Shown: positions 1,402 through 56,283 of the stretch, piece after piece
How the letters are laid out: every line of letters begins with the position of its first letter
How positions within the stretch are numbered: position 1 is the first letter of the stretch
Assembly: GCF_004010195.1 (NCBI RefSeq)
Contig: NC_057751.1
Span: forward strand, 12,664,908-12,728,907
Reading direction: 5' to 3'
DNA: 64,000 nt
Source: Chiloscyllium plagiosum
Lineage: Eukaryota
Program-made: the position numbers and the translations under genes
Notes under the pieces: model-generated
Databases searched by the model: none
Seen by the model: the letters and a program-made list of their open reading frames with translations, nothing else
Told to the model about the DNA's origin: nothing

Positions 1402-2020
1402 TGTGATGAAGCTGCTCCTTCAAAAACGTTATGCTGTTTGTCCTTGACTTTTTTTTTCAGAGCGGTTGTAAACACCACAGACTCCAAACGTCTGGGTTTG
1501 ACAGTTTTAGGGCCAATTTGTTTCTCATAACAGATACTGCCTCAGGCTTTCAAGTAAAAACTACACTTGTACAATGAAAGGGAAGTGGCCAGTTCGCCCA
1601 GCTCAGCTTTTCTCTGGTTTGGTTTGGTTTTCAGTAATAGTGTGGAAAAAGCTGCTGGACCCAAAGAAGCAGGTCCAGGCTGGTACTCTCTCTCTGACTG
1701 TAAGAACCTGTGTTTGATTTTACCTTTTGTTCCAAGAGGTGTTTATGGAAATTGTTGCAAGTATTTGGAACAGCATAATTAAGTTGGAATGATCTGTTGG
1801 GTTTTCGGAGAGGCTAAGTTATTCAGTATTCAGTTTTCTTTTGTTTGTGTTTCATTTGGTAACTTTGTGAATAAATTCTGTTTTGTTTAAAACTAAGTGA
1901 TTTTTAACAGCTGCATCACTCCTGCAATATCTGCAGTACACCTGCTGAAATCAACTAGCGAAATTAGGGTCTGGGCTACTTTCTTGAAATGTTTTGAAGG
2001 GACTGGCCTAGTCCATAACG
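1402..2020 (+). mobile_element. Solo LTR of a Gypsy (Gmr1-like) family
   Basis: Starts TGTGATGAAGCTGCTCC and ends CCATAACG (expected ...CA). It is flanked by the 4-bp direct repeat CAAT (1398-1401 and 2021-2024) and has an internal AATAAA near 1870. It is homologous to 26806-27412 and 47666-48232. Confidence 0.85.
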
Positions 2021-2169
2021 CAATGAATTGTAAAAGAGAAGAAAGATTACCATCATTTCATTCCTCTCAAGAAACAGAGGCCAAGGGTGGTCAGTGCTTC
2101 TTGGGTAAAAAACAGCATTGACCTTGTCTTGATCACACGCACTAACTACCATCCATGGAGTCTCATTTA

Positions 2170-2370
2170 GAGGAACTAACATTAGGTTTTGTTTGAGATG
2201 CTTGTAGAGTATTATACTGTTGGAAGTGATGACTTTCAGAAGCAATGTTCAACCAATGCTCTAGATATTCTTTCTAGTGGATGTAAAGTTGCCTTCTCAG
2301 TCTGTCAAACGAGAGCAGCAGAACTATTGGCCAATATTTATCGCTGAAATATCTCAACCAAGGTCACTCT
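2170..2370 (+). mobile_element. Degenerate DeuSINE/SacSINE1-like SINE fragment
   Basis: Remnants 'actgttggaagtgatgactttcaga' and 'tggccaatatttatc...ctcaacca' resemble the Deu-domain core. Confidence 0.45.
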
Positions 2371-2721
2371 CTGGGGGTGGTCTATGCTCGCAGCTGCCCT
2401 CGTGTGGATAATGGTGGTTTAGCAGATTGATTCACAATAAGTGGAATTCTGTTTACGTACGGTATCTTTGAAACCACTTGCCACCAAATGTCTGTAAATC
2501 CACTTCGTAGCCGTCATTTTATAGTTTTGCAGTATTTTCTGATTTTAATATAATTAGTTTTTATTCTCACTTCTTTCAGTTTTTAACAAAAGAACTGATG
2601 GATCTGACCATCAGTTGCAGAGGCAGTTCGTGCTCACAGCCGCCCTCATGTGGACCATATTAGTATGGCAAATTGGGTTCACACGAAGTGGAATTCTATT
2701 GAACGACCTGTAAATTCATTT

Positions 2722-3510
2722 TGGTTTGATTTTATTTACTTATTCTCTGATTGTATTTACAAAATACAGTGAAAAGTGTTGACCAGTGTCACCACTCTCT
2801 GGCGCTATCTTAAAACACAGAAAAATAAACCAAAACATACACTATAGAGGTGGAAAAATGAATAAAGTGTCCAACTTTTCTTGTTAAGCGCTCAGTCATG
2901 GCCAGGCACAAGCACCTTTTGCCATGCTGCCACCTCAGGAATTAAAATTGCCTACTTTTTTGTGCCAATTGGCCTCCATCAATGCTGTCATCACTCTGAG
3001 ACCTTGCTATAGCTTGCTAAAGCAGCCACCCCAATGCTGCTGGACCCTGAATCAACCCAAATTCAACACCACTCCCGCCATGAGTCTGCTTTGGGCTCAC
3101 TTGCCAATGAGCTGCTGCTGATGCCAGAAGGTTTTAGACTGGGCCCAAACATATCTGCTCCGTGTCTTCCATGTATCTGTGCTGGGAACAGACGTCACTG
3201 GGAACCTAAACTCGCCTCCGCAGCAGCAGCCATGAGTCAGCACTTGGGGCTGCCTCAACTGTGCAGAAGCCAGTGGGAACCCAAACTCACTTCAGATGCC
3301 ACTACCACGTGTTTGTGCTGCTGGGCCCAGTCATGCCATCACACGACCAATGCCATCATCACAATGGAGCTTTTCACCAACAGGTAAATAAAATAAAATA
3401 GAACAGCAGAAAAAAACAAGAGAGGACTGAAAACAGAAAAGAAATGAAAAGTGGACAGCATAGATGAGCCCTGGGCTCAGAAGCCCTACTCCACTGCCAT
3501 CCTACCAGAA
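2722..3510 (-). mobile_element. Non-autonomous retroposon or LINE-derived element
   Basis: The left end reads ...ttttcactgtattttgtaaatac...aataaaatcaaa on the minus strand, a shark LINE/SINE-type 3' tail (a similar tail is at ~8860-8910). The right end is a LINE-like 5' start (ggatggcagtggagtagg). It has degenerate internal repeats and interrupts repeat unit 2. Confidence 0.5.
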
Positions 3511-3659
3511 GATTAACCAGTAATGTTTGAAAGCCCATTTTAATAGATGTACAACATCTGCAGAATTTTCTAATGTCAATATGATTCAGTTGCAATCAAA
3601 CCTTGCTTATTCTGGGGTTTAGACGCAAGTGGGTGTGACTTGTTTAAGATGTTCTTGAC

Positions 3660-4228
3660 AAGGTGGACGTGGAAATGATATTTCCCCTTGTAGTCGGTAT
3701 AGAAGAAGGGGTAGCATTTTAAAATTAGGAATTCAGCTTTTACGTCAGAAATGAAGGGCTTGGCAGGGACAGTGTTTTTGTCCCTGCCTCTGAGCCAGAA
3801 AATCTCTGCATTCACATCACATCTAAACAGGTTGATTAAAATAGTTACTATTCTATACTAGATGATTGGAATCTTTTTCCTTAGATGGTTGTTTGGCTTT
3901 AGCACACTCCATCTCAGAAGGCAATAGAGGTGGTGCCATTGAATATGTTTTAAGACACAGGTGGATAGATTATTATTTGGAAGGGAAATCAATGTTTAGT
4001 TGGAGTAAGCTATTAATATGAAATTGGAGTTTAGATTCGAGCGGTGCTGGAAAAGCACAATAGTTCAGGCAGCTCCTCGGATCTAAACTCTGGTTTCCAG
4101 CATCTGCAGTCATTGTTTTTACCTAATATGGAATTGGAGACAACCTCAGCTGATGGACTGAATGGCCTACTCCTGCATATATCCTATGCTGGGTCATGGT
4201 CTTTTTGAATGGTGGAGCAGGCTGGAGC
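3660..4228 (+). mobile_element. CR1 3'-end fragment with nested short tRNA-SINE (~3755-3840) and PLE-derived piece (~4025-4125)
   Basis: Contains 'gggtagcattttaaaattagga' and CR1 3'UTR motifs 'gaatggcctactcctgc' and 'gaatggtggagcaggctgga'. Confidence 0.65.
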
Positions 4229-4345
4229 AGGACCTGACCATCAGTTGCTGAGATGGCCCATGCTCATAGGTTCCCTCGTGTGGACAATGCTGGTATAGCA
4301 GCTTGATTTACAGGTTTGTGGTTCAGTGATGCATCATTCAAACTA

Positions 4346-4716
4346 CAGAACAAAATCGATTATCCGAACATCAATTAGCCGAATCTTGGATTATCTGAAC
4401 AAGATCTCAAGGTCCCATTAAAAACAGCATTAGGCAACTCAGCATTCAGTTATCAGTTAAATGGCATTATGATGTGTATTGCCCATATATCCGAGGCATG
4501 TTTGTTAACTGGCACTCAGATGACATCTTCTTTATGATCAGATCAGTTATCAGTTAAATAGCATTACGGCATGTATTGCCGGATAACCGAGACATGTTCG
4601 GATAACTGGCACTCATAAATTAATGCTTGTTTATGATTAATTCAGTTATCTGAACAATCAGTTATCCGAACAAAATACTCCCTAACCTTCTTGTTCAGAA
4701 AATCGGGGTTGCTCTG
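4346..4716. mobile_element. Tc1/mariner (Tigger/pogo-like) MITE
   Basis: Imperfect TIRs CAGAACAAAATCGATTATCCGAAC and GTTCAGAAAATCGGGGTTGCTCTG, with TA on both flanks (4344-45, 4717-18). It contains an internal ~97-bp duplication, and the host repeat resumes directly after it. Confidence 0.8.
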
Positions 4717-5130
4717 TACTTCCACCAAATGTCAGAAATATTCCTTCATAGATTTCATCTTACAGTCTTGTAGAGTTTTTTTGATGTGAATATCGCACAC
4801 TTTTATTAACTTTCAGCACAGGAAACCTGGAGATAGTGAGGAAATTTCCAGCATCTGGATCTGGCCATCAGATGCTGAGGTAGTCTGTGCTCACGGCTGC
4901 CCTCGTGTGGACTGTGGTAGTTTAGCAGATTGATTCACAAAAGTGGAGTTTTGTTTAACTCCTATGTATTTGAAACCACTTGCCAGCAAACGTCTGGAAA
5001 ACGCTTTCATAGATTTAATTTTATTTAATTGCAGTATTTTTTTATTTCAATATGATCGTAACTTTATCAGTTTTTCGCATCTTTAGCATCAATACTCTTC
5101 AACATCTGAATCCGGCCATCAGTTGCTGAG

Positions 5131-5264
5131 ACGGAAAACAAAAAGTGCTGGAGATCACAGCGGCTCAGGCAGCATCCATGGAGAGAAAACACGCCAACAT
5201 TTCGAGTTGAGAGCAATTTTTGTTTTCAGTACAGATTCCAGCATCTGCAGTAATTTGCTCCTCA
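5131..5264. mobile_element. Short Penelope-derived element
   Basis: Contains 'gtgctggaga..cagcggctcaggcagcatc' and 'ttccagcatctgcag' motifs. It is flanked by the 8-bp direct repeat TTGCTGAG (5123-5130, 5265-5272). Confidence 0.6.
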
Positions 5265-5589
5265 TTGCTGAGGTGGTCTGTGCTCACAGCTGCCCTCGTG
5301 TGGACTATGATGGTTTAGCATACTCATTCATGAACTTTGGGTTTTGTTGAACTTCGGTGTATTTGAAACCAGTTGCCATCAAATCTGTGGAAACCCATTT
5401 CAGAGACTTCATTTTGTTGCATTTCAGTTTTAAAAATTTCAATATAATTAGTTTTTAACCACGCGTTTATTAATTTTCAGCATTTACAGCATCAATAACT
5501 TGCGGAGGTGCTCTCAGCTCATGGATGCCCTCGTGTGGACAATATTGGTTTAGCAGATTGATTCATTTGGAAGTGGCGTTCTGCTCACT

Positions 5590-5714
5590 GGAGATAGAAC
5601 TGCAGATGCTAGAGAGACAGAGTCGATCAACAATTGAGCTGAAAAAAGCACAGCAGGTCAAGCAGCATCAGAGGAGAAGGAAAGTCGATGTTTCAGATCG
5701 GAATCTTTCATCAG
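5590..5714 (-). mobile_element. Short Penelope-derived element with minimal hammerhead-like core
   Basis: Minus strand 5714-5687 reads CTGATGA-A-AGAT-TCCG-ATCT-GAAAC-ATC. The + strand has 'aactgcagatgct..aaaagcacagcaggtca.gcagcatc'. Confidence 0.65.
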
Positions 5715-5947
5715 TTCTGTTTAATTACTATTAAAGCCACCTCACATTACTCTCTTCAAACTGCTGAAATTGCTGAAATCACCTGCCCACAGTTGTTACA
5801 CCTAGAGTCTTGGACCTTGTGTAATATCCCAGATTACGATTAAATTTATGATCCTAAATTGTCACCAGAACAGCAAAGTCCCACAGGTAATCATTACTCT
5901 TGTACACTGGGGAAGAAATCAGAGTTAACTGTTAAACATGGAAGCAT

Positions 5948-6058
5948 TATAGAGTCATAGAGATGTACAGCACGGAAACAGACCCTTCGGTCCAACCCAT
6001 CCATGCCGACCAGATATCCCAACTCAATCTAGTCCCACCTGCCAACACCCGGCCAATA
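5948..6058 (-). mobile_element. HER1/CR1 3' tail
   Basis: 'atagagtcatagagatgtacagcacggaaacagacccttcggtccaac' is the reverse complement of the CR1 3' end seen at 15350-15428. Confidence 0.85.
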
Positions 6059-6464
6059 CTATGTAAGGGAGACAGTGTTAACCTGTAAAGAGATAATAAA
6101 GACCCAGTTAATCGATAAACATTATTGTATAAGCTATATGCAGGATAACCCTAGCTCTTTGTTAAATATGATTCATTAACCATGGGAGAATAAAGACAAA
6201 AGAGAATAAACTTTTTTGAAACAAAGGGTTCATAAATCTGTAATGTAAATGCAGGTCTGGCTGCATCTGTGGGGAGAAAAATGATGTTTATGTGATCAGT
6301 AATCAGCACTGGGTCAGTTCAAAATGTCATGACTCAGTTGCAAGTGAGGGGTTTGATGCAGGGAGATAGTAGAGGACAGGAGAGATTCAATGACCGTGAG
6401 TTAATGGCCTTGACACAGACAGGGATGAGGGATTTTGAATCCTTTATATTCGCAAAGCTTTAGG

Positions 6465-7618
6465 GACCTGGATATAGGTTTGATCGCTGAGCTGGAAGGT
6501 TCATTTTCAGATGTTTTGTCACCATACTCGGTAACCTCATCAGTGAGCCTCTGGTGAAGCACTAGTGTTATGTTTCACTTTCTATTTATGTGGTTAGGTC
6601 TCCTTGGATTGGTGATGTCATTTCCTGTTCTTTTTCTCATAAGGTGGGAGATGGGATGCAAATCAATGTGTTTGTTGATAGAGATCTGGTTGGAATGCCA
6701 TGCTTCTAGGAATTCTTGTGTGTGTCTCTGTTTGGTTTGTCCTAGGATGGATGTGTTGTTTCAGTCAAAGTGTGTCCTTCCTCATCTGTATGTAAGGATA
6801 GTAGTGAGAATGGGTCATGTGTTTTTGTGGCTAGCTGATGTTCATGTATCCTGATAGTTAGTTTTCTGTCTGTTTGCCCTATGTACTGTTTATTATAGTT
6901 CTTGCAAGGTATTTTGTAATGATGTTCATTTTGCTTGTTGTCTGTATAGGATCTTTTAAGTTCATTAGCTGCTGTTTTAGTATGTTGGTGGGTTTTTGGG
7001 TTACCATGATGCCAAGAAGTCTGAGTGGTCTGGCAGTCATTTCTGGGATGTCTTTGATGTAGGGGAGAGTGGCTCAGGCTTCTGGACAAGTGTTGTCTGC
7101 TTCTTTGGGTTTATTGCTGAGAAATCGACGGACTGTGTTCATTGGATTCTCATTCTTTTCGAATACGCTGTATAGATGATTTCCCTCTGCTCTTCATAGT
7201 TCCTCTGTGCTGCAGTGTGTAGTGGCTCATTGAAATAATGTTCCAAAGCAGCTGCGTTTGTGGGTGTTGGGATGATTGCTTCTGTAGTTCAGTGTTTGGT
7301 CTGTATGTGTCGTCTTCCTGTAGATGTTGGTTTGAAGTTCACCAATGACTGTTTGCTCCACTGTGACATCGAGGAATGGCAGTTGGTTGTGATTTTCCTT
7401 CTGTTTTGTGAATTTAATGCTAGTAAGGATATTATTGATGGTCTTGAAGAGTTCCTCTAATTTTTTTGGTTTAGTGATGACAAAGGTGTCATCCATGGAG
7501 CGGACCCAAAGTTTGGCTTGGATGGTTGGCAGAGCTGTTTGGCTGAGCCTCTGCATTACTGCCTCTGCCACAAACGCTGATATTGGAGATGTCATGTATG
7601 TTCCATTGGTTTGTCTGC
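6465..7618 (-). mobile_element. 5'-truncated Penelope-like element (RT + GIY-YIG endonuclease), pseudogenised
   Basis: ORF 7227-7679 contains SPIS..AEAVMQ..LWVRSMDDTF..LPFLDV..YRKTTHTDQ..SNHP (PLE RT and thumb). ORF 6742-7089 contains YKIPCKNYNKQYIGQTDRKLTIRIHEH (GIY-YIG). A hammerhead-like remnant lies at 6510-6543. Confidence 0.92.
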
Positions 7619-9989
7619 AGGTTATGGTTAGGATTAGAGTTTTTGGACTGGCTGTACTTTCCACCTTTTCCTTTCTCAAATTCCCAGAAAGCTGGAATAG
7701 CCTTTATCTCTGTGGTATGCATTGCTGTGACCCTCAGTTCCTTTTCTCCTTGTGTAGCATCTCACTTTTCCTGCCCCATTTACCAGTCATGTAAAATCTT
7801 TAGCACACACTGAGCTACCTTCTCTAACTTCCTCTTTCAGCCGACTTCTTATCACTGGGTGTTTACAATCTTCAATTCAACTCATCCTTCTCCTTCTGCT
7901 TTGAGATTGCTGCCCTCCTCCATTCTCTGGCTTTCTCTGTATGGAAAGTCTCCTCCACATATTCAACTCTTTTTATCTACTGTGGTCTCCTTAATGCCAC
8001 AGTAACTATCCCGGATAAAGCAGTTTCTGTGAATTTGAGATCCCTCACCACATTTTCCCCTTCCTCATTCCCAACTGCATTCCTTTCTGTGTTTGCCCTG
8101 GAAAGGTAACCCTGGCCGAAGTTTTCAAGTCTTGCTCTTGCATCTTCAAGTTCACAGTGATCTAGCTTCAGCCCTATAATTCATCATGACATTTCTATAG
8201 ACTGTTTCACTAAATCAAATCATTATCTTTGCTGCCCTCATGTTCAGTGAAACTAACACTTGTCCTCACTTTCTTATTCCCCTGTAACAATCATTGGTGA
8301 ACACATAGTGAGTTTGACTGCAGAGAAATCTTCAATATGTCTTCAAATGAACATTTAGGTAACCTCTCCTGGTGTGAGAATGTTAGGTTTGTATTAAGCA
8401 ACAGAGCAATTACATCAGTATCAAGTTGAGATGTACCTGGCTGTCATCTACTGTTGCACATACTAATTGAATCCATATCAATGCAAGGGAATTGTATCAA
8501 AGAATGACATTTTAAGTCTTTGCTGTTGAAAATTTGGGGAGGAGCACTAGACTTGACTGTTCAGGTGGTGACAAGTTGAGCACTGTTACAACTGACTGCA
8601 GTGAAATTTCTCAAAATGCTGCAGATTCTGACTGTAGGTGGTGGAAAGAGTGAATGTGGAGCCAGTCACGATGGCTGCTTTTTCCTGGATGGTTTCAAAC
8701 TTCTTGAACCCATTCCCGGCATCTGTTCAGGCAACTAGGGACTTCTCCTTCTCACTCTTGACTCATGCCATTTAGATGGCGGGCAGGCTTCGGTGAGTTA
8801 TGTGTCTCAAAATTCTTCAACCTTTGACATTCTTAAGTGCTCACAACATTTAAATATGATTTGATGTGATTAATAATTGTCACATGTGCCATGATGCAGT
8901 GAAAAGCATTGTGTGCTATCCAGGCAAATCAGACTTTACATGGACACATCGAGATACGAGAACAGAATGCAGGATGTGAAGTGTTACCGCTGCAGGTATG
9001 CAAGTATATGGCTTCTATAATGTAATACAAAAGATGGGGGAAAATGTAGCACTAAAGAAAACCAGCCGGCGAACAAGTGAGTGATGTTTTAAAATGACAG
9101 TCATAATTAATTTGACCTGGAAAAGGAGACGTTTTTCATGGCATGGGTCTGATATAATAACGTGACCTTGACTTTTGACAGAAAGGTGTGGTTTTGCAAA
9201 TGGTGAGAGTTTGGCATTAATGCAGTGAACAAGTTGTACTGGGTGGAAAAGTGTAACTCCAAATGGAAAAGCTGGTGACTTTGCATCCATCAAGTGCGAA
9301 TCAAGTGAGATTCTGCCAGCAGGCAACTAATTATAACAATCGTGGCTGTACAGGTTACTCAAGAAGGAAGAGACAAGGTGAGTGTTTGCCTCTTGACAAT
9401 GAGAATGGGAAGTTCATCAGGAAATTCTGAATGAATCGAACAAATAGTTGGCCAGTCTATATACAGAATACAAAAAAAACCTTCCAATAATAACAGTTGG
9501 TCAGGAGGTAGAAGAGAGAAGGGAACTCAATTGACAGGGAAGCAAAGTCATGAGACTATGGGCTGACAAATCCTAGGCTCCTGATGAACTTCAGTCTGCA
9601 GTCTTAAAAGGAGTATAGAACGAGTAATGGATGCATTGGAGTTCATTTTCCACAAATCGCTAGGTTATGAGCAGGCAGGTTCTATCGGGTTAGCACTATC
9701 AAGTTGTTCTCTTGAGGAAGGAAGGAAGGGGAGACAGAAATTGAAATCTATAGAGAAAGGTGTAAATGATCCCGAGGGAGGTGAGAGATGGAGATGAATA
9801 AAATCTGAAGGTAATTGGAAAAGTCAGTATGTTTTGTCACAAGAGAAAATACTTGTCACCAACCTTTCAAATTTCTGTCTTGAAGCCTTAGCTTTTTACA
9901 AATTATTTCAGTGACTATGATGCAGGGAGCGAAGATAAAGTATGGAAGTAGAATTTTTAGGGGATGATGGAGATTGCTGATGGATAGAG

Positions 9990-14264: not shown

Positions 14265-15428
14265 GCTACATATTCCACAAGTTTGTCACTATTTAAGAAA
14301 GATGGTAGTAAAAAGCCAGGGAACTACAGACCAGTAAGCCTGATATCAGTGGTGGGCAGGTTGTTGGAGGGAATCCTGGGGAACAGGATGTATATGTATT
14401 TGGAAAGGCAAGGACTGATGAGGGATAGTCAACATGTCTTTGTGCATGGGAAATCATGTCTCACAAAAGAAGTAACAAAGAGGATTGATAAGGGCAGAGC
14501 GGTAGATGTGATCTATATAGACTTCAGTAAGGCGTTCAACAAGGTTCCCCATGGGAGACTGATTAGCAAGGTTAGATCTCACACAATACAGGGAGAACTA
14601 GCCATTTGGATACAGAACTGGCTCAAAGGTAGAAGACAGAGGGTGGTGGTGGAGGGTTGTTTTTCAGACTGGAGGCCTGTGACCAGTNNNNNNNNNNNNN
14701 NNNNNNNNNNNNNNNNNNNNNNNNNNNNNNNNNNNNNNNNNNNNNNNNNNNNNNNNNNNNNNNNNNNNNNNNNNNNNNNNNNNNNNNNNNNNNNNNNNNN
14801 NNNNNNNNNNNNNNNNNNNNNNNNNNNNNNNNNNNNNNNNNNNNNNNNNNNNNNNNNNNNNNNNNNNNNNNNNNNNNNNNNNNNNNNNNNNNNNNNNNNN
14901 NNNNNNNNNNNNNNNNNNNNNNNNNNNNNNNNNNNNNNNNNNNNNGAAAAGATTTACAAGGATGTTGCCAGGGTTGGAGGATCTGAGCTATAGGGAGAGG
15001 CTGAACAGGCTTGGGCTGTTTTCCCTGGAGTGTTGGAAGCTGAGGGGTGACCTTATAGAGGTTTACAAAATCATGAGGGACATGGATAGGATAAATAGAC
15101 AAAGACTTTTTCCTGGGATGGGGGAGTCCAGAACTAGAGGGTATATGTTTAGGGTGAGAGGGGAAAGATATAGAAGAGACCTAAGGGAAAACTTTTTCAC
15201 ACAGAGGGTGGTGCATGTATGGAATGAGCTGACTGAGGAAGTGGTGGAGGCTGGTACAATTGCAACATTTAAAAGGCATCTGGATGGGTATATGAATAGG
15301 AAGGGTTCGGAGGGATATGGGCAGGATGCTGGCAGGTGGGAATAGATCGCGTTGGGATATCTGATTGGCATGGACGGGTTGGACCGAAGGGTCTGATTCC
15401 ATGCTGTACATCTCTATGACTCTATGAT
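14265..15428 (+). mobile_element. CR1/HER1 LINE 3' half (RT and C-terminus), spanning an assembly gap
   Basis: PGNYRPVSLISVVG, VDVIYIDFSKAFNKVPHGRL and RQRVVVEG motifs, then LRGDLIEVYKIM and a 3' tail ending in (CTCTATGA)n-like repeats. Confidence 0.95.
14688..14945. other. Assembly gap (258 N)
   Basis: Run of n characters. Confidence 1.
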
Positions 15429-16329: not shown

Positions 16330-19260
16330 GATCAAAAATGGAAGTAATGAATATACCTCAGTAAACACTCCCGTGACCACTTAAAAGGTTTACATTCCAA
16401 ACCTGGTGTTTTCATAAGACCACTCATTGGCATAGCTCCAATTTTCCAAAGTTCATCTTTTAACCAAAAAGTTGCCAAGATGCATTGTATCAGTTGAGGC
16501 ACCGACACTGCTGGGCTTGACAAAAAGATGAGGGCATCATCCGCAAAATCTTATGTGATTTTGACCCCATTTCTGGAGCCAATATATTAGAATCTCAACA
16601 AATGGCCTCCACCAGCTGCTCATTCACCAGTGTAAAATGCAATGGTGAGAGGGGACAGCCCTGTCAACTGCCCCGAAAGATATTAAAATTACTTGATCGT
16701 ACACCATTGGTGAGAACCGCATCAAGAGGATCATTATAAAGAACCTTTACCCATCTTAAGATTTCACCCAAGCCAAACCGCTCTAGGAGTATAAAAAAGG
16801 TATGGCCACTTGACCCAGTCAAATGCCTACTCTGTATCCAGAGAGATCACTAACCCCTGTACAGACTGCTGTTGATACGGTTGAATCACATTTAGCAACC
16901 TCCTAAAATTTATTGGAGGATCTGCGGCCTTTTATGAAGTCTGTCTGGTCCTTTTTAATAATAGAAGGCAACACAGTTTCTAGCCTTAATGCAAGAGTCT
17001 TAATGCAAGACTTTGAAATCAACATTTAAGAGTGAAACGGGCCTTTCGGAAGGACAGTCCTCCAGGGCGTTCCCTTTTTTCAGAATAAGAGAGATATTGG
17101 CCTCTCTTAGAGATGGCAGGAGATAATCATGAGTCATTAAAAATGTTGAACATCGGGCCTGACAACATGCTTATAAATTCCTTGTGAAATTCACTGGAAA
17201 GTCCGTCAGTCCAGGTGCCTTTCCATTCTGAAGCTGCTTCACAGCCTCCTGGTCCTCTTGCTCTGATAAGGGGCCATTGAGAAAAGACTCTTGTTCGGGG
17301 GCCACACCCGGGAACTCCAGACTTTTGAAATAAAGACTCCATCCTAGCCCACCCATCCTCACAACCTTCAGACTGATATAGTCCAGGGTAAAATCTCTGA
17401 AATACTGAATTAATCCTTTTGGAATCGCAGGTTATGTTTCAGCATCTTCCCTGATTGATGTAATGGTTTAAGGGGCACTCCTTTCCCTGGCAAGTACACA
17501 AAGTACTTGCCTGGTTTGTCACTATGTTCAAACAATGTTTGCTTTGCAAAAATAAGCTCCTTCCTTGCTGTCTGCGTGAGCATGAAGTCCAATGTAGACC
17601 GAAGCGCTGTGATCCTCTGTAGCTTAGCCAACAAGGGTCTGTCAAAGTACACCTTCTCAGCTGCCTTCAACTGTGTTTCGAGCAGACATTGTTTCTCACC
17701 TTTCTGCTGCTTCCGACTGGCAGTATAGGAAATAACTAGCTCTCTGGCATAAGCTTTACCCATTTCCCAGAGAACGGACGGGCTACTAGCTGTACCTGAA
17801 TTAATATCTGGGAACGCCCTGAATTCATTCAAGAAAAACTCCACAAATGTACTATCATTAAGGATAAAGGGATCCATTCACCAGTGTCTTGGAGATGCAA
17901 CAGTGTCCTTAATCTTAACTACCAAGTACACTGGAGTGTGATCGGAGATGGCAATATTACCAATTGTACAGGATGCCACCAAGTCCAGGGTTGCTATGGG
18001 AGTCAAAAAGACATCAATCCGATGTGTGGCACCTGTGTGGATGGGAAAGCAATCCCTGCCTGTAGGGTGGAGATGCCCCCAGATGTCCTCCAACCCTAAG
18101 TCAACACACAAATCCACTAACTGCTTAGTTTGCAAGGAAGGTATCGGGGTGGGGGGGGGGGGCGGGGGTGTGTTATTGGACAACCTGTCTACTGTGGGAT
18201 CCATAAGACAATTAAAATCTCCCTCTATAATGCTATGCCAGGATCCAAGGCAAATCAGTTTAGAAAATGCATCTACCAGAAATTTAAGGAGATGGGTCAG
18301 GGAACAGTAGACACTTAAAATATCATATTCTTCCTCATTTATCAAGGCTTTAAGGATTACAAACTTCCTGTGCGTGTCTTTAACAGACTCTGGTAACTTA
18401 AATGGGAGATTCCTCCTAACCAGTATGGCTACTCCCCTACTCCTAGTATTAAAAGATGAAAAGTAAACCCTATCAAACCCATTCTGTTGTAATTTCAAAT
18501 GTTCACTATCATCCAAGTGTGCCTCCTGCAATAAGGCAATATCCATCTTTTCCTTTTTAAAACTTGAGTACCTTTTTCCTCTTGATTGGCAAGTGACTCC
18601 CCTTGATGTTCCAGGTACACCATTTAACCAAGTCATTAGCCATAACCTTCTATAGTAAAATTATGACTCCTGAGAGGAAGAACTTGAATTACAAATCACT
18701 GAGCCTTAACAGAAGAAAATCCACTGAACTACACAAACTAAAGCCACTACAACAACTATATACAGCAAAAACCAAAAAACAATACAATGTATAAAGCGCC
18801 AATGGCACTGGACAGGGGAAATCATCCCCCTTCCAAAGGGGGCACCAAAATACTCCTAAACCCTACTTCCTGTTCCACTGCCAATACAGCAACCAGGGCA
18901 TTTAAATACCACAACTGGGCTTAAACTGCCCGTGAATAGGTGTCCAGCCATCCAAATCATCTTCCCTCCTTCTAGCTAGAGCTGCACCACAAACACAAAC
19001 TAAAAACACAAAAAAAAAGAAAAAAAGAATAGCAATGTGAACAAAGAAGTTAAAAATGAATAGTGTATACCCTGCTCATCCCCTGGTATAGCTTAACTTA
19101 GAAGTTAAAAGTAAATATCCTATCTGTCCCTGGGCATAATTTAACCCAGATTATTGCCAAAAAAAAAAGAAAAAGAAAACCCCAAGAAGACTTCTATTTC
19201 CAAAAAGACATACCCAAACAATGTTATTATCTGTACATATTAAACCACTCAGCCTAAGCA
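16330..19260 (-). mobile_element. L1-clade LINE fragment (APE endonuclease + RT), decayed
   Basis: APE motifs IALLQEAHL, SRGVAILV, EGDFNC, RIDVFL and ISDH in 17878-18636. KAPG precedes the RT (~17230), with QGCPLSP and ADD remnants at ~16540-16670. An A/T-rich spacer lies upstream. Boundaries are approximate. Confidence 0.9.
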
Positions 19261-23149: not shown

Positions 23150-24570
23150 ATGAGCTCCCAAGATTAGCCCAAAGCAAACTAAACTTCTTCCCTTTACTTT
23201 AAATCTATGGTAGTGGTCATTGACAAGTTTCTTCCTCTCCACCCTATCTACTCCCTTCATAATCTCAACTATTCCCTCTTAATCTCTGCCACTCTAAGGA
23301 AAACAACTCGAGTTTGTCCAATCTCTCTTCATAATTGAGATTCTCCAGCTCTGGCAACATGCTGGTAAATCTCCTCTGAATCCTTGCCAGTTCAAGCACA
23401 CCTATCACACAGCTTCTGGAACTGTGCACAATACTCTAGCTGTGTGGTTTAACTAATGTTTTATACAGATCCAGCAACATCTCCTGCTGTTAATCTTTAT
23501 GTTTCAGCTAATAAAGGCACGTATACCATATGTCTTTTTAACCACTTTATCTACTTGCCCTGATATTTTAAGGGACTGGTGTCCATGTGTATTCTTCATC
23601 ATGCATTCGCTTGCCTTGTTTGTAGTCCTGAAGTGCATCACCTCACATTTATCCAGATTGAATTCCACATGCTACTAATCAGCATATCTGACCAGCCTGT
23701 CTCTCTTCTCTTGTCGTCTCAGGCTATTCTCTTCACAATTTACCACCCCACCAATTTTTCCATTGTAGCTGTGTGGCTTAACTAATGTTTTATACAGATC
23801 CAGCAACATCTCCTGCAGTTAATCTTTATGTTTCAGCTAATAAAGGCAGGTATACCATATGTCTTTTTAACCACTTTATCTACCTGCCCTGATATTTTAA
23901 GGGACTGGTGTCCATGCGTATTCTTCATCATGCATTCGCTTGCCTTGTTTGTAGTCCTGAAGTGCATCACCTCACATTTACCCAGATTGAATTCCACATG
24001 CTACTAATCAGCATATCTGACCAGCCTGTCTCTCTTCTCTTGTCGTCTCAGGCTATTCTCTTCACAATTTACCACCCCACCAATTTTTCCATTGTCTGTG
24101 AACTTAATGATCAAACCTCCTCCATTGAATTCTAAGTCATTCATATGAACCCCAAACAGCAAGGTCCTCAACACTAATCCCTGTCAGACCCTACTAGACA
24201 AATATCTCCAGTTGGAAAAACATCCCTCAACCATTGCCCTCTGCTTCCCACCACTTAGCCAATCGTGAACCTAACTTGTCAAATTTCATTGGATCCCAGG
24301 GGCTCTTACCTTTCTATCAATCTTTCATATGATCTTATCAAAAGCCTTGCTGAAGTCCAAATCATCTACAAAAACATTGCGCTCATCTGCACACCCAGTC
24401 ACCTATTTCAAAAATTCAATCAAGTTTAACAAAACTATGCTGACAGTTCTTCATTAATCCCTATCCCTCTAAATGCAGATTAATTCTGATCCTCAGAATA
24501 GTTTCCCCATCATTGAGGTTAGATTAACTGCCCCTGGAGTTTCCTGGTTTATCCACTGCTCTTGCCTTGT
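23150..24570 (-). mobile_element. Decayed CR1 LINE fragment
   Basis: The reverse complement shows DFSKAFDK-like and C-terminal CR1 motifs. Confidence 0.8.
23437..24094. repeat. 329-bp near-perfect tandem duplication
   Basis: 23437-23765 versus 23766-24094, with about 6 substitutions seen by eye. The duplicated ORFs at 23579 and 23908 are offset by 329. Confidence 0.95.
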
Positions 24571-31045: not shown

Positions 31046-32804
31046 GATTTAAAACAATATAATCTATATCCAGTGCAAATTAAAGAATGCAATGAAATAT
31101 CCACTTAGATTGACTATTCCTCAGAATAAATTATGAAGTCCCGAGCATCTCCTACCATCAAAATGCAATATCATGCCACTTATTTTGTCTGAACTTCCAT
31201 CCCTCAGAGACAAAGTTTATTGGTAGTCAGATCCAATGATCTGTGAAGCAGATATGTTGTGATTGGCTCCTTCATCAAAACATTATGACACAATTTAATT
31301 TGTCATGATACAACAAGAGGTTTAAGGTTCCATGTTCCCTTCGAATGGAAACCCAGTGTCATTTGGGTTTTGTCAGAGACAGCCTTAGTATTTAAAAGCA
31401 TCTCATGACACTCTTGACTTCTTTAGTATCAGGTCGAGATGAAGATGTTTCAAGTTATACCAACTGAAATAGCAATTTCAAATGATCCCTTTCCCACAAA
31501 AATTAGTGACCCTACACTTAAGAGCCCTGTGCTGCCAAAGTCTGGTGCTGACCATGATATAGTGATATCCTTACTGTTAAAGTGGACCTGTCAACAGGTG
31601 GCAGGAAGCATGCACAATGTGCATTTGCTCTTCTTGGCAATGCAGAAATCAGAATGAAACAGTAGGTCTGTGGCATGCACCAATTTTCAACACACCACTC
31701 TCTCTCTCTCCAAGGTCAAAGAGTCTTATCTGCTGCCAGTATTGCGCACGTCAGAAAAACAACTGGAAAAAGAACCAAAGATGACATGAGGAAAATCATT
31801 TTTGGGTGGGATCTGGAATTCAACATCTGACAGTATAGTGAAGGGAGATCCACGACTTTCAAATCGAGATTATACAACCTGCAGGAAAGAAAAGAAATGT
31901 CAAAGCAGGCTCACAGTTCTGAGTCCACAACTCCAAACCAAAACTAAGAGAATGAAATAAAAACACCAAACCTTCGCCGAGGGTTCTCACAACAGGACAT
32001 CCCATTGGACATTTCTCTTCTTTTGCAACGGTTCGAAATTCAAAATGTCTTTCTCAAAGGCAGTGAGGCATGCAATTATTTGAAGACATATAACTTGCAG
32101 GATTTTGTGTGGTTGATGTGGGTCCTCGTGTGGACTGCTCTTTTGCAAGAAATTGTTTTGATAAGAAGAACTGAACTACTTTCTTCCACGCTATGAAGAC
32201 CAATGTTTATTTAACAATTTACTCAGAACAGAATATGAAACTGTTTGAAGCTCTCCACATTGCTTTGAAACTCTACCACAACATGTATGGGCAGAGAGAG
32301 AAAAAAACAACCTCTCAGTATATTAATTATGCTGCCGAATACGATGAGGACAGGGAACACCTTTCACTCATCATTTCATATACTTCACCAAACAATACAC
32401 CAAAGAATAATTAAACTCCATGTAGTAGACATTATTATGACGCACAAGAAAGCTCAGAGACATTTCTTACAAATTGGATAGTCTTATTTTCTCGGTGTGA
32501 ATTGATTTGTGACAGTGGCACTACAAATTTAGCTTCCCTTGACTGGGTTTTACCATCAGCCCCACAACCTGAATCAGCACATTAACTGTTGTGGGGAGCC
32601 ACGGTCGATGTCTGTCCAGTGGCTGGAACCTGTGGAAATAATATTGTATTTTGGTTGTGGGAAGCAGTTACCGATTGTTCCCTCGTCATAGACTCCGCCG
32701 GTCAATCATGTTTCACTCTATACTTACTCACACCATCCAATTCAAATGAGATGCCTAGAACATGTAAAAGTGGTCGGCAGAAAATATGCAGTCAGACCAT
32801 CAAG

Positions 32805-33235: not shown

Positions 33236-35616
33236 AGAACTTAGCTTGTGGAATCAGACAACTTAACACAACGAACCCTTTCACAAGCTTTCCCTCACCA
33301 GTCAGCCATTTGTTGGTCCACGTTGCAATGTCAACATTTGCTTTGAACCCTCGGAAATGTGTCGTATAACACCTGCTTTTTATAGTCATTCGTTCTTGTC
33401 ATGTCCCACTGTCATCTCCTTCGTCAAACCCTTTGTTCTTTTAATCTCTCTTGGTGTAGACCGAATCCTGGAGCTTGTTTCTCTGCCATTCTTCTCCTCG
33501 CCTTCTGCGTTTCTCTGTGGGAGACATGCGTCACAAGTTTCCACTTCTGACCACAGGGCCCGGATCTCAAATATCAACTCTGTTCCTCTTTCCACAGTTG
33601 ACAATGACCAGCATTCTCCGTTTTTACATCTGAACTGTGCCTTGGTGTTTGTTTTCCACATCCCGGGTGTTCAGTAGCTCTGGATCACACGTTGTACTAT
33701 CCGTTCAGTCCCTGGCACGGGCCGCACTGTTCCTCTGCTCTCTGTCACACATGACCTTGTCTAAGTGTTCGCTGACAAACTCCAATGCCAAAAGGCCAAG
33801 CTTCCTAAGTAGCACTGCTATTCACGATACCGCAACCGATCGGACCTGATCCTAAAGAGAAAAGATAGCACCGTAATTTGGACTATCAGATTCGTGCATA
33901 GTTGGTGCAGCATTTTCCGAATTTTCTCTTCCTATTTCCCATTTCCAAGCTCTGAACATGTATAAACCTTACTGATCCATTTGTGAAATTAATCGCTGGC
34001 GATGTTGAATCGGTGACGAAATTCAAGACAGACTCGAGACTGTGGTGAATGTTACGGGCCTGAACCAACTAAAGCGAGCCATTGGCCAATGACACTGAAC
34101 TTCCAGAAATAATTCAGTGCTGATAGAAGGCCTGACTGAGGAACTGGTGAGTCTCTGCGACAATTGAAGGACAGGCAGACAGCAGCAAAATGGGATGTAA
34201 TGTCAATGACCCTCAAACTCTGGTTTGCTGCTTTCAGTCTTTGCTCATTATCCTCGATCGTTTTTTTTTTAAATTGGGATACAGAATGCAAAATATATTG
34301 CTGCTTGGCCACTACGACGTCAAATATAATGACTGACTCTCATGGAATGGGAGAAATATTTCCAGGCGCTCCTATCGTTCGCTGACAGGAACTTCTCTGC
34401 TATGAGATGTGTTAAGATGAGTCTATGACAGGCGGACTGTGTTGCATAGAAGCCCAATGATGTGCTACAGAACTGAAGGAATCCTAGCGAAATTTGCTTC
34501 CAACTTTATGGAAGATGAATTACCGGAGTCTCGTGTATTTCGGTACTCCCTGAGATAGCATAGTAATTTGGCAGAGAGCTGCATGCTCGAGATTTCGCTG
34601 GGCAATGAGATCCCGAAACATGTCAGATATGTCTGGGGAAGATTTACAGATGTGAGGTATATCGCCGGGTGGTTGATGGGCTGTGAGGTCTTCGGCAGGA
34701 TTTCACTGGGATATCAAATTTCCATCTTCTTGGGATAATGGGGCGCACTATACACGAGTTGGTAGATTCTGAGAACCATTTTGAAAACGGGAAATCTTGA
34801 GAGGGAAATGACTGGAATGTAAGAGACTTAACAGTGAGTTACTGGTTTCTATCATGTATCACACGCAGTTACTGGGACCTTCGTTGCATTAACCTGATTG
34901 CCGAGTCTAGGGATCGAGTTATCCTCTTTGTAAATGCCATGTGGCTCGGCGCACGGGAGTACCATACTTACAGTGTCCCAATATTTATGTATGTGAAACT
35001 GTGGTTTTTGGTCAACATCCATGGGGTACACTGTGGGATTTCCTGCTAGTATTGGCAGATACTTGGACCCTGTGAAAGATAATGGATATTCCCGGAGTCG
35101 ATCAGTCCTTAAAAGGCATTTTCTTGGTACTCCGTTCACCACGATGCTTAGGACAATCGGCGAATGTCTACTCTTATGGAATTAGCCTTGGGATGTATAC
35201 TTCTGGAAGATCCACCGATTGTGTCAATGTATACCAGGAGCCTGACGGAATGTTTCGTGCCTTATGCGGGTTTCTTCATGTCCAGAGAACGCTCGTTCTC
35301 ACATCCAGTGTCCCACTGTTAAGATCAGTACGTACGATATGTTTGCCGGCTGAGATCACTCGTATGGGCCCGGATTTCAGAAAGAGCTTTGTTAATCACA
35401 GGGGTCTTCATTGAACAGTTCGGATTTACATGATGCCCGAACGTGTCAGTATTTGGTCATGTTCCTCAAGTTCTGGCACTCGCTGAAGTGTTTCTGACAA
35501 CACGTCAGTTGTTATTTAGTTGCAATTTGAATTGAGCAAGTGTTGCAACGTTATAGATAGCTCTGGATGTCATCGTCAAAATGATGCTGAGCGCCACGGA
35601 GGGTTTCACGCTCTTG

Positions 35617-35623
35617 TATATAA
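35617..35623 (+). promoter_or_regulatory. Candidate TATA box of the GPCR gene
   Basis: TATATAA about 80 bp upstream of ATG 35705, in a CpG-enriched context. Confidence 0.5.
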
Positions 35624-35704
35624 CAGACTCCGGCAATTCTCGGTACCAGATCGGTGATTGTGGGTCGGGACGCTAACGGCGCTTCAGCAAGGAAAAAAAA
35701 AAGC

Positions 35705-35891
35705 ATGAATCAGACGCTGCCGTCAGTCCATTCCAATCTCACACAAATGGATCACAATCTGAGTGAAGCAGAATGGAATAGTACAGCAATGCATTTTCGT
35801 AATCAAGTCTCTAAAGATTTTTGGGTACTCATGGCGTTCTATAATATTGAACGGGTCTATTATCCTTTCCTGGCTGTCATCGGTGTCATCG
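35705..35891 (+). CDS. GPR139/GPR142-like class A GPCR, exon 1 (N-terminus + start of TM1)
   Basis: MNQTLPSVHSNLTQMDHNLSEAEWNSTAM...IERVYYPFLAVIGVI, with four N-glycosylation sequons. It ends at a phase-1 donor G|GTAAGT (35892). Confidence 0.85.
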
Positions 35892-36879
35892 GTAAGTCTG
35901 GAGAGGCTGATGTTAATTCCATCAATTTTTTTTCTGCTGTTCTATTGTCCATCATTCATACATTCATGAACAAGGATGTTGGGGCTTTCTGGTAAACATG
36001 TTTAAATATTGTTATTTGTTAACAGTGGGACTTTAATACAGTGCTCTTTCAAAGGGGAAACGTGTGATTAGTGATTCACTGTGGATCTGTCACTCTGAAG
36101 CGAGATGTATTGATTGGGGAATATATATATAGAGGGATCTATAGTCAGAAGGGCCGCTGCGTAAATGGATAAATACGTGTTTAGAGGTGTCCTACAGATA
36201 TCAGATTTATTTACAGGTCGTCTCTGATGTGGGAAATGCGTTTCGAAGTCATTGCGGGGAAGGAAGATTGGATTACGGCGGTAGTCCCGGGATGTGAAAA
36301 GCATTAAATGAATCCCAGGTTAAGGATGAACAATCCTGACTTGGAATTACATGCCTGCCCTTTGCTGTGGCTGGGTCGGAAGACCTGGAATCGCCTTTCT
36401 TGTAGCACCGCTAGTGCCCCTACACCCTCAAGACTGCGGCTTGTAGTGCAAGGAAAATGCTGGCCTCACCACTGGCGACTAGATCACATTGAAATAAAGA
36501 ATACGGAAACGTTCAGATCACAGGCATGCTTCGGCAGTCGTGTTTCAGGGCTGCTGTTGAAAGGCCTGTAATGTTGGGATTGTACGCACTTGTTTACGGA
36601 CATAGGCGATTGCTGATTATTGAGGAATGCAAAAACACCGGAGAAAGTACAGGGCAAGTCCAGTTTGGTTAATTACCACCTTTGCTGTCTACTGTCAGCA
36701 AAGTGCGAGAAAGTGTCAATAATAATGCCAGAAGGCAACACCTATTCAAACAGAACTTGCTCACTGATGCCAAGTTTCAGTTCCGTCACGGTCACTGAAG
36801 TCCTGTCCTAAGCTGAATCTTGGGACAAAAAGTATGGGCAGGAAGAAACTATTCCCACTGATTTGGGATAATTAATCAT

Positions 36880-38215
36880 TGATTTGGGCATAAATTTAAT
36901 GGAAGGGGCAGAAGTTTTAGAGTGGATATGAGAAATAACCTTTATGATTCAGAGAGTGGTGTTAAACTGGAACTCACTGACTGTAAGGATGACAGAAGTA
37001 TAAACCATCGTCACGTTTAGGAAGTATGTAGATGTGCATTTCTAATGCCAAGGCATACAATGCTTGGTACCAAGTGCTGAGAAATAGGATTAGAATTGCT
37101 GGGGATGTTCTTAACTATCACGGACATGATGGGCTGAAGGGCCTTTTTCTGTGCTGTGGAACTCTATGCCCATCAAGAGGTTAACCCAAGACAGAACATC
37201 AGAGTGACTACCTTAACATCAAGACAGCATATGACCATGAACATGATCAAGAAACCCAAGCAAAACTCGAGTCAATGGAAATCTGGAGACGTCTATTCAG
37301 TGGTTAGAGTTATCCCCAGCACAGAGGCTGTAGTTTGGGGATGACATTAATCTCAATCTCAGGATAATTGTGTTGGTTTAGTTTTAGGCTCAAACATCTT
37401 CAGTTACTTCAGTATTTACCTTCCCTCCATCAAAATATCAGCGTGGGCATGTGCATTGGTCATTATACAATGTACAGTACATTACAATTTGTAAGATAGA
37501 ATACTGACGTAGGTAATGCCCAATCACAACAAGATGTGGACAATTATCAGCCTTCTACTGATAAGCACTAAATAACAGTAAAGTCACATAAGTGCGAGAC
37601 AGTGAGCATATCAAGCAAGATAGAATTGAAACATGTTTGTTTGACGTTCAATGACATTGTTAATATCACTGCTGAATTTCCCATGGCCTACACTCTGGGG
37701 TCAACAATGAGTGCAGATTGAGCTGCTGTCATCATATCAATACTGTGATTACAGAGCATATCTGAGTCTGTGAAATTTGCAAACCATACTTCACCTAATA
37801 TGGCTACCACCTAGAAGGCAAGAGGGTGATAGCATCTCTTCACTTGCCTGGATGAATGAAGCTCCATCAATACTCAAAAAATGCTCAACACATCCATAAT
37901 AAAGCAGCTGAACTGATTACCACTCCATCTGCCTCCTCCACCTTACTGAGTTACCTTCCAAACCCACAACCTCTCTCACCCACAAAATCAAAGTCAAGCA
38001 CCTGCAGATTTCCCTTTAAACCATCCTCACTTATAAGTCGCTGTTCCTTAACTGGTGTTGGGTCAAATGGTAGGAACTCCTTTCCTAACAGAGCTGACTG
38101 TGAATTCATATCACATGGACTGGAATCAGTCAAGAGCGTGGCTCACTATGATCTTCTCCATGTCAATTTGAAATAGGCAATAAAATGGTGGCCCAGCCAG
38201 TGATGCATACATTAT
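36880..38215 (+). mobile_element. Intronic LINE fragments (CR1 3' end ~36880-37170; CR1/L2-group ~37540-38215)
   Basis: CR1 tail 'gggctgaagggcctttttctgtgctgtggaactctatg'. The second piece resembles 30405-31045. Confidence 0.65.
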
Positions 38216-39163
38216 GTGACATAATTTTAAACACTGTAGCACTGATTGCGGGAACATATACCTCTGATGATAACTTTAAAATTCAAAATTCAGGGTACAC
38301 CTCATTCTTATAGACTGTTTGGTCATACAGCATGCCCTTCTCTATATGTTACTTTGACCACCTTACATTACTCATTTAGAACAGCTTTTAACTTTTTTAT
38401 CGAGAAATGCAAACCTACTCCATTCAAACTTTTCCTCAATACTTAGTCCTTTTACTGCCAGCACCGTTTGCAAGAATTATTAAGACCAATATGAACATAT
38501 TACTGCAGATTGGATCAATTTAGATTTTTTGTACTTCATGGATGCAAACATGAAGTCACCTTTTAATTGCCTTTTGTACCAGTCTGATTTTATTTGTGAT
38601 TTTAGTGCTTAGTGGTCCACATTGTATTGTCCATTTGCACATCCCAACTTATCACTGCTGGGAAAATGCTGCAGCCAATTCAAATCCAATACCACTGAGA
38701 ACTACAGCCTGCATAAAAATAAAGTCACAGTGGTCTTTGGGACCATTTGTCAATGGTTTTGTGTTTTGTACAGGCTGAATCAATAACTATATTATTATTT
38801 ATGTTACCTGTTCATGTCTACAAGGTGATCAAGAAACATTGATTAAAGAGAAATCTAGAAACTATACAATTGTTGACAAGGGCATTTCAAAGCTATATCC
38901 ATATACATATAAAGCATCTACACGAAGAATCACTTATAGTAATTCCATGATTTGGAAAGGCTAATGCCATACTTTTTCAGTTAATTCTGTTTTTACAAGT
39001 TTAACTTTGTGTCAAATAATAAGCTCTGTCATGGGTAAGTATATTAAATTCCAACACTGAATACAGCAAGAAAAGTGCAAATGTTGTTAAAATTACTAAG
39101 CTATCGGTTTTGTTTTCTTTCAAAGCCTAATACATAATTTGTCTTTTTCTTTCTTTTCAACAG

Positions 39164-40074
39164 TTAATGTACTGACGATTGTGATCCTGTATCGTGAAAA
39201 GTGTGGTCTCTCCAAAGATAGCACTACATATCTGATGGCAATTACAGGGGCAGATCTACTGATAATTTTCATTGATTTGATATTACGGCAGATTCCTACA
39301 CGTTATGAGCAACAGTTCATTTTCATGACCTCCATCCCCTTGTGTAATGTCCATGCTGTTGTGCTGTATACAGCCATAGACTGTTCTGTCTGGTTCACAG
39401 TTGCTTTTATCTTTGATCAATTTGTGAGCATTGTTTGGCAGAAACTGAAAGCTAAGTATTGTACAGATAAAACTGTAGTGGTTGTTCTGGGAACAATGAC
39501 AATGTTCTTCTGCTTGAAGAACCTCATGTGGTTTTTTATGTTAACAAATCAGTATCAGTTTAGAAATGTGCCCTTGTTTTGTGCTGTAAGGGAAGCGGCA
39601 ACTGATTCATTGACATGGGCTATAATTGAAATGCTTCATCATATTTTTACACCAGGGATCCCATTTGTTTTGATTTTGTTACTCAATATTTTAACTGTCA
39701 GACACAATCTGCTGACCAACAAAGAACGAGTGTGTCCCGAAGGCCACAGTATTGAGGAGACTCCCAGTGACACCGAGATGGTGAACCAAAGGAAGTACAC
39801 CACTTTGCTGTTTGCTCTATCCGTGAATTTCATGTCACTATGGGTTATGCTGTTCCTTTATTCCCTGTGGAATCGGATGTTTTGGTTGGGCTATAAGCCG
39901 ATATATCTTCCTAGGTTTTTCAGGGAAATTGGACAGATGCTTCAATTCCTGAGCTATTGCACAAATATTTGCATTTATATCCTAATTCTGGATGAGTTTA
40001 AGGAAGATTTGAAGTATGTGGTCAAATATCCATTTGTGCGAGTTGTTGCATTTGTTAGTGAAAAGAAGAACTGA
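39164..40074 (+). CDS. GPR139/GPR142-like class A GPCR, exon 2 (rest of TM1 to TM7 and C-tail); spliced product 365 aa
   Basis: Polypyrimidine acceptor ttttcaacag at 39163, phase-compatible with exon 1 (G+TT=Val, giving GVIVN in TM1). Motifs ADLL (TM2), CSVWFTVAFIFDQF (TM3), KYCT, PFVLILLLN (TM5) and CTNICIY (TM7). No internal stop. Confidence 0.92.
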
Positions 40075-56007: not shown

Positions 56008-56283
56008 GCGGCTTAGTCGCTGACTTCTGAGCACTACTGCCTCACAGTGCAAAAGATTGTTGACTGTGAGGAGTTTGCACATGCTTCCTGTGTCTGCGTG
56101 AGTTTCCTCAGGGTTCCCTGGTTTCCTTCCACAGTCCAATGATGTGCAGGTTAGATGGATTATCCATGAGAAATGCAGTGAAAAAGGGATAGGGTAGGGC
56201 ATGTTACTGGGCGGGATGCTCTTCGGAGGATCGGTGTGACGCGATGGGCTAAATGGCCTGCTTCCACACTAGAGGCATTCAGA
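56008..56283 (+). mobile_element. HE1-type V-SINE (diverged)
   Basis: 'agcactactgcctcacagtgc...gagtttgcacatgcttcctgtgtctgcgtg...ggcctgcttccacact'. Confidence 0.88.

Follow-up and report, generated by a model that had tools for sequence, protein, structure and literature searches.

Tandem arrays of binding sites for the zinc-finger protein CTCF are already known from mammals, so that the array described here is not new in kind. It occupies positions 2354-5590 (minus strand) of a 64,000-nucleotide stretch of the genome of the shark Chiloscyllium plagiosum (assembly GCF_004010195.1, contig NC_057751.1, positions 12,664,908 to 12,728,907; hereafter the window), and consists of diverged units of about 245 bp, six in number and arranged head to tail, each carrying one predicted extended CTCF site and together interrupted by six insertions. 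Which of the described systems does it resemble? By our comparison, the nearest described elements are ICCE and Dxz4/DXZ4 and the co-oriented protocadherin and Igh arrays. In ICCE and Dxz4/DXZ4, as in the shark array, tandem monomers have diverged while conservation is restricted to an extended CTCF motif, which follows a rigid, locus-specific sub-consensus (PMC6125249, PMC3491370). Their units, however, measure 3-5 kb, whereas here six copies of 245 bp stand in one orientation, and the X-inactivation context, the YY1 site and the superloop evidence are theirs and not the array's; the likeness rests on descriptions, and homology with the shark array is not claimed. The protocadherin super-enhancer and Igh arrays share with it the placement of same-direction sites within a few kilobases and, again, a locus-specific sub-consensus (PMC7087399, PMC6746451), but they possess an enhancer, opposing promoter sites and a facing gene cluster, where the facing side of the shark array takes up 2.3 kb of the window. 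Such an array in sharks is not described in the literature searched, which did not extend to subscription journals. We consider it likely, on the evidence set out below, that this is a selected array of predicted CTCF sites, which would hold up cohesin in one direction only, when it comes from the left, and we place more confidence in predicted binding by CTCF alone than in binding together with the barrier.

At the level of the single site, the template is the extended CTCF site, in which fingers 9-11 read an upstream motif, fingers 3-7 the core and finger 1 a GAG triplet 3' of it (PMC10484683, PMC9004084, PMC12885311). The shark sites match this arrangement in the spacing given by a 5-bp linker, in a GAG followed by C, and in the variability of the finger-8 span and the finger-2 triplet; they differ in having AC or AT at core positions 5-6 and A for T at position -12 in four of six copies, and the shark sites are predicted from sequence. 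A boundary site at ABCG8 likewise combines A5 and a base other than A at position 6 with an upstream motif, and is kept across the mammals listed (PMC12885311 supplement table S6), but it is a single site with G at position 6, where the shark copies have C or T, and with a 6-bp linker (PMC12885311).

The array stands out clearly from its surroundings. The minus-strand site pattern matches six times in the window, where 0.25 matches would be expected by chance and none of 100 shuffles reaches six. All matches lie on the minus strand, at 2397-2424, 2643-2670, 4273-4300, 4900-4927, 5293-5320 and 5528-5555, and a repeat finder groups the units at these places as well, their starts lying 246, 1630, 627, 393 and 235 bp apart; the distance from site to site drifts freely between 235 and 1630 bp. 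The units that carry sites 1 to 6, all on the minus strand, extend over 2354-2599 (unit 1), 2600-2709 plus about 3512-3595 (unit 2), 4230-4856 including inserts (unit 3), 4857-5107 without interruption (unit 4), 5108-5492 including an insert (unit 5) and 5493-5590, where a dispersed repeat cuts unit 6 off. With insertions subtracted, units 1, 3, 4 and 5 are 246, 226, 251 and 243 nucleotides long and stand at Jukes-Cantor distances of 0.31-0.67 from one another; unit 2 is recoverable for 194 nucleotides and the truncated unit 6 for 98. Self-comparison and a profile search confine unit sequence within the window to 2354-5590, and the profile search finds no seventh site in the 64 kb. An earlier note on this DNA had described six same-orientation copies of a unit of about 245 bp, amplified as a repeat and pointing left, with a spacer fixed in length and variable in sequence. 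All of this is borne out, the complete or rebuilt units measuring 226-251 nucleotides and the spacer between upstream motif and core being 8 nucleotides in all six copies. Its limits for the array, 2372-5750, do not hold, as 5591-5700 belongs to a dispersed repeat, and the 32-bp element that it saw conserved is indeed conserved but is 38 bp long, because an invariant GAG(C) comes after the core.

The conserved element thus consists of upstream motif, 8-nucleotide span, core and GAG(C), and recurs on the minus strand as site 1 (2387-2424, with the upstream motif at 2416-2424, the core at 2393-2407 and GAG at 2387-2389), site 2 (2633-2670, the most diverged, in which the core CpG has become TpG), site 3 (4263-4300, with changes at core positions 12 and 14), site 4 (4890-4927), site 5 (5283-5320) and site 6 (5518-5555). 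Scored with an approximate version of JASPAR matrix MA0139.1, the six cores reach 10.2-12.7 of 29 bits, with p values of 1.9e-5, 1.3e-5, 2.9e-5, 9.1e-6, 2.5e-5 and 1.6e-5 for sites 1 to 6; all six thus fall under 1e-4 and fill six of the top 12 ranks in the window, in which 22 places pass that threshold against 12.7 expected. By inspection, the upstream motif is absent from all other listed matrix matches in the window. The bases that the cores have in common with the known extended site are CCA at 1-3, G7 and G9-G11. The earlier note had likened the core to the H19 type and observed that it departs from the common YA; the departure is real (AC or AT at positions 5-6), but the H19 likeness is loose, with mismatches to the H19 consensus at 3-5 of 14 positions, against 2-3 to the genome-wide consensus.

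The two outer parts of the site match their counterparts closely. In the composite consensus, the upstream motif is separated from the core by a linker of 5 bases plus another three (PMC12885311 supplement), and the 8-nucleotide span equals this published spacing in all six sites, in keeping with the earlier proposal of an upstream motif for fingers 9-11. For this motif an in vitro optimum has been printed in two slightly different spellings (PMC10287918), from which the 9-mers of sites 1 to 6 depart by 2, 2, 1, 3, 2 and 2 mismatches; five of the six thus have at most two, for which the chance is 0.0014 per site. Among the contacts named in the structures, C-10, A-11, C-15 and G-16 are present in all six copies and C-9 in four. 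On the other side of the core lies the strongest point in favour of CTCF, one that the earlier note did not mention. In the published structure, the triplet contacted by finger 1 is a GAG at 19-21 that directly continues the core, and finger 2 forms no bonds specific to any base (PMC10484683). A downstream GAGCCA motif has been ascribed to finger 1 in a study based on chromatin immunoprecipitation (ChIP), and use of the finger-1 GAG in cells is still termed putative (PMC9004084 preprint); the downstream motif of PMC13470930 lies 11 bp away and differs from the GAG seen here. Positions 19-22 read GAGC in six of six sites, next to positions 16-18 without any invariant column, and the joint chance that a GAG stands here and that none of its three columns varies is about 2e-4. 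A three-part pattern allowing at most one mismatch finds exactly these six sites in the window, with 0.01 expected, which shows specificity rather than prediction because the pattern was written once the sites had been seen. The two-part motif of upstream element and core is common to lamprey, chicken and human (PMC5504073); together with published remarks on conservation among vertebrates, this would indirectly favour a shark CTCF with the base-contacting residues intact. A metagenome scan with the site pattern gave no matches.

The argument for selection comes from comparing the bases that CTCF reads with those that it does not. In the numbering of PMC10484683, the read positions are -17 to -9, 1 to 15 and 19 to 21, and the unread ones are -8 to -1 and 16 to 18; as outer flanks we took the ungapped columns outside this footprint. 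Variant cells make up 10 of 162 at read positions, 16 of 66 at unread positions within the footprint and 31 of 162 in the outer flanks (for the read positions, p=3e-4 in comparison with the unread ones and p=7e-4 in comparison with the outer flanks). The former comparison weakens to p=0.003 without a CpG-like pair at 16-17, and such cell-level tests overstate independence because the six copies share ancestry. Counted by column, 20 of the 27 read columns are invariant as opposed to nine of 38 neighbouring ungapped ones (p=1e-4), and conservation dips at the finger-8 span and at the finger-2 triplet, where no bases are read. When the columns were permuted and a two-part template was freely placed, 24 of 20000 trials came up to what was observed. 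In neutral star-tree simulations, 20 invariant columns arose at the fixed place in 0-1 of 4000 runs; when the best place was taken, they arose in 0 of 4000 runs without rate variation, in 7-9 when it was moderate and in 49-55 when it was strong. Like the cell counts, these tests treat the copies as more independent than they are.

Could the array be a former CTCF element, or one homogenised by conversion, that is now decaying without function? It has tolerated six insertions and the truncation of unit 6, site 2 has lost its CpG, site 3 carries two core changes, and the simulations with strong rate variation do match the observed conservation in the 49-55 runs just given. Nevertheless, the pattern of identity speaks against decay. 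Sites 1 and 5 are identical at 27 of 27 read positions, whereas their units agree at only 127 of 196 positions outside, and over all pairs the read positions are 89% identical (360/405), in contrast to 63% outside the site (1272/2012). The unread stretches of the footprint (102/165) are as diverged as the sequence outside, so that recent gene conversion appears an unlikely source of the site conservation. Also, the CpG at core positions 6-7 is retained in five of the six copies, being lost in site 2, whereas the pair at 16-17, which reads TG, TG, TA, CG, TG and CA in sites 1 to 6 and looks like a decayed CpG, is CG in one of six. In an alignment that assigned 2710-2790 to unit 2, 21 column pairs contain any CG, and the 20 other than the core pair have it in just one or two copies; the survival of the central CpG in five of six copies had been seen in the earlier note. 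The observed/expected ratio of CpG is 0.19-0.29 in the flanks and insert block and 0.36 in the whole window. We therefore hold a decaying, functionless array to be quite improbable. The case for predicted CTCF sites is, on these grounds, stronger than originally argued, as GAG at 19-21, the 5-bp-linker spacing and conservation that tracks the fingers all favour it.

Several observations nevertheless weigh against this assignment. The six copies share their ancestry, and their motif match counts once; strong rate variation lifts the best-place simulation to 1.2-1.4%; and conservation exceeds the footprint, with 81% majority agreement in the outer flanks, to which other factors or regional effects may add. 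The cores are middling, and one lone site elsewhere in the window outscores them. Across 19 columns, matrix information and conservation correlate at a borderline level (rho 0.44, p=0.057). At position -12, the T that is named as a specific contact of finger 10 is present in just two of six copies, the other four having A. Position 5 is occupied by A, the rarer base, and position 6 is in no copy A, at a cost of about 5.6 bits in the matrix used. In the CTCF core, A6 is read by a glutamine. The H19 consensus, however, has N at core position 6, and the UPK2 site, with an upstream motif, has T there (PMC12885311 supplement); A6 is common yet not obligatory in extended CTCF sites. For the neighbouring base, Thr421 of finger 6 tolerates any of the four (PMC10484683), its target being, we infer, position 5 in the numbering of that study. 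In vitro, upstream sites have their greatest effect at cores of intermediate strength but fail to rescue defective ones, although the defective variants affected positions other than 6 (PMC10287918). Finally, upstream motifs in mouse are enriched at inaccessible sites with weaker cores, and higher occupancy is not always insulating in mouse cells (PMC13470930).

The missed contacts, A6 in all copies and T-12 in four, could also be read as signs that another zinc-finger protein, or mainly the testis paralogue CTCFL, binds here in an enhancer-like or germline role, with no boundary. CTCFL does occur in sharks, where it is testis-biased and resembles CTCF in its finger domain (PMC7471279), and the reach of conservation into the flanks would suit a different factor. 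However, the site has three separate parts at the published offsets of CTCF, and its variable stretches are exactly the two that CTCF leaves unread, which makes a different principal binder improbable. In the flanks of the footprint, at -25 to -18 and +26 to +38, most columns show agreement in 4-6 of the six copies; these stretches are possible sites of co-bound factors.

Unit 2 is split by an insertion of about 800 bp at 2710-3511, with boundaries set by eye, whose 124-amino-acid open frame has no Pfam match and of which the window holds no second copy. Between units 2 and 3 lies a mixed block (3596-4229) of pieces that recur elsewhere in the window. Unit 3 contains, at 4344-4718, an element resembling a miniature inverted-repeat transposable element, with TA at both ends and 25-bp terminal inverted repeats matching at 19 of 25 positions, which we take from these features to be of the Tc1/mariner type; it has an internal 97-bp duplication (4446-4551 against 4543-4650) and retains many CpGs. 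A 28-bp insert, set by eye, follows in the same unit at 4818-4845. Unit 5 holds an insertion resembling a short interspersed element (SINE) at 5131-5272, flanked by an 8-bp target duplication (5123-5130 and 5265-5272) and stopping 10 bp short of the GAG of site 5, and unit 6 is truncated by a SINE-like dispersed repeat (5591-5700) found at four other places in the window. The earlier note had counted at least five insertions, none within a site, and took this avoidance as telling. The count stands, at six, and so does the absence from the sites; the argument does not, because the sites make up 15-19% of unit sequence and five insertions would miss every one of them with a chance of 0.35-0.43. 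We have accordingly dropped avoidance as evidence of selection.

The surrounding repeats raise the question of whether the unit itself derives from a dispersed transposon, a fragment of which, with a CTCF site in it, would have been duplicated on the spot, in which case binding would be real but incidental and not specific to the locus. Repeat-borne CTCF sites are documented in mammals and lamprey (PMC5504073). Yet no copy of the unit occurs elsewhere within the 64-kb window, and RNA reads from dispersed repeats stack on the insertions and not on unit sequence. Such an origin, which we judge very unlikely, would in any case leave the evidence for selection intact.

Transcription from the unit was considered as well. 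Were the unit to encode a repeated small RNA or a repeated exon, one could point to weak consensus hairpins that can be drawn on both strands, but there is little else to match. No Rfam family reaches its gathering score anywhere in the 64 kb, and even at E values up to 10 the sites have no match, the three weak matches in the array region all lying off them; of 12 single-strand folds, not one improves on z=-1; the covariation terms of the consensus folds are penalties (+1.28 and +0.31); no transfer RNA was found; and the four frames of at least 80 amino acids within the array have no Pfam match. When 2% of a poly(A) single-cell run was sampled, bins containing unit sequence only received no reads, a weak result without a positive control. 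Over 1500-7000, one run (X1) gave 465 reads, of which 463 were partial fits lying mostly on dispersed repeats, and a second poly(A) single-cell run (X2) gave none. An RNA or exon function of the unit is thus extremely improbable, and the Rfam, fold and Pfam results led us to reject the readings as RNA family, shared fold, transfer RNA and coding sequence. Two further candidates were set aside: a second CTCF-like word per unit on the plus strand (best at 4719-4737, p=1.0e-4), which has neither G7 nor an upstream motif, and a V(D)J signal, the parts of which, judged by eye, are in the wrong order.

How, then, might an array of predicted CTCF sites work at this locus? The sites are reverse-oriented, so that their active face is turned to lower coordinates, with 2.3 kb of the window on that side. 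We envisage that a single ancestral site was amplified long ago by tandem duplication, and that purifying selection held the read bases while the remainder fell to 63% identity and accepted insertions. In every copy, fingers 9-11 of CTCF would then engage the upstream motif, fingers 7-3 the core and finger 1 the GAG, the outer contacts offsetting a middling core that lacks A6. A row of such sites would stall cohesin, and several in series would leak less than one when acting as the barrier, or the loop anchor, of a domain to the left of the window. Published assays provide points of reference. Single sites with an upstream motif blocked enhancers best when the finger-3 side faced the enhancer, another assay required 2-4 tandem copies, and most loops join a forward CTCF site to a reverse one.

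Only one gene is recognisable in the window, 30 kb rightward of the array and behind the sites; the insulator or super-anchor role and the adjoining gene cluster proposed in the earlier note are, for this array, candidate features. The gene encodes a GPR139-like receptor (35705-40074, plus strand) in two exons, the first placed by inference at 35705-35891; the main exon is open and contains a 324-amino-acid frame (39100-40074) of the rhodopsin receptor family. Of 120 frames of at least 80 amino acids in the window, six have a Pfam match, namely the receptor and five retroelement-type fragments. The receptor belongs to a large family of sharks and rays with 301 relatives, the best at 58% identity; among the 120 listed of these 301, two are without a name, and the named ones, 41-58% identical, come from sharks and rays and are in every case called 'probable' or 'putative GPR139'. 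The array could set the receptor gene apart from the left-hand domain, or could close a domain. A CpG-rich stretch was noted at 35300-35800 (observed/expected 0.97). The best lone CTCF core match of the window, at 31588-31606 (plus strand, p=6.8e-6), is 4 kb upstream of the gene, lacks an upstream motif and points right, divergent from the array.

A more far-reaching scenario, which we regard as unlikely on the sequence evidence, would make the array an ancient elasmobranch super-anchor, whose weak-core, CpG-containing sites rely on fingers 1 and 9-11 and which borders a cluster of the greatly expanded GPR139-like receptors as a boundary that is tunable or gated by methylation. If true, evolution would itself have supplied evidence for the reading of DNA by finger 1 in vivo throughout the jawed vertebrates, and the array would parallel those CTCF arrays by which the choice among protocadherin promoters is balanced. 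Irrespective of this scenario, the array adds a clean internal control, as six old paralogous copies show conservation that traces the finger-by-finger contact map, including the GAG of finger 1. Its sites are a ready test set for the rescue of cores without A6 by peripheral fingers, and the array itself may be a boundary in the neighbourhood of a gene from a very large receptor family of sharks. PMC7471279 cites published CTCF ChIP data from bamboo shark and catshark.

Several further features were noted in the remainder of the window. Retroelement remnant frames at 6745-7703 (minus strand), without a Pfam match, resemble what we take to be a Penelope-type element. Another remnant, at 17413-18660 (minus strand), has the endonuclease domain of a long interspersed element (LINE), and a LINE fragment includes a 258-base assembly gap at 14688-14945. 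At 48648-50458 (minus strand), broken pol fragments resembling those of a long terminal repeat retrotransposon match reverse transcriptase, RNase H-like and integrase core domains. A 329-bp tandem duplication at 23437-24095 is recent, its copies being 98% identical. Towards the right end, from 56000 to 64000, the CpG observed/expected ratio is raised to 0.55-0.76 without a recognised gene, possibly owing to young repeats.

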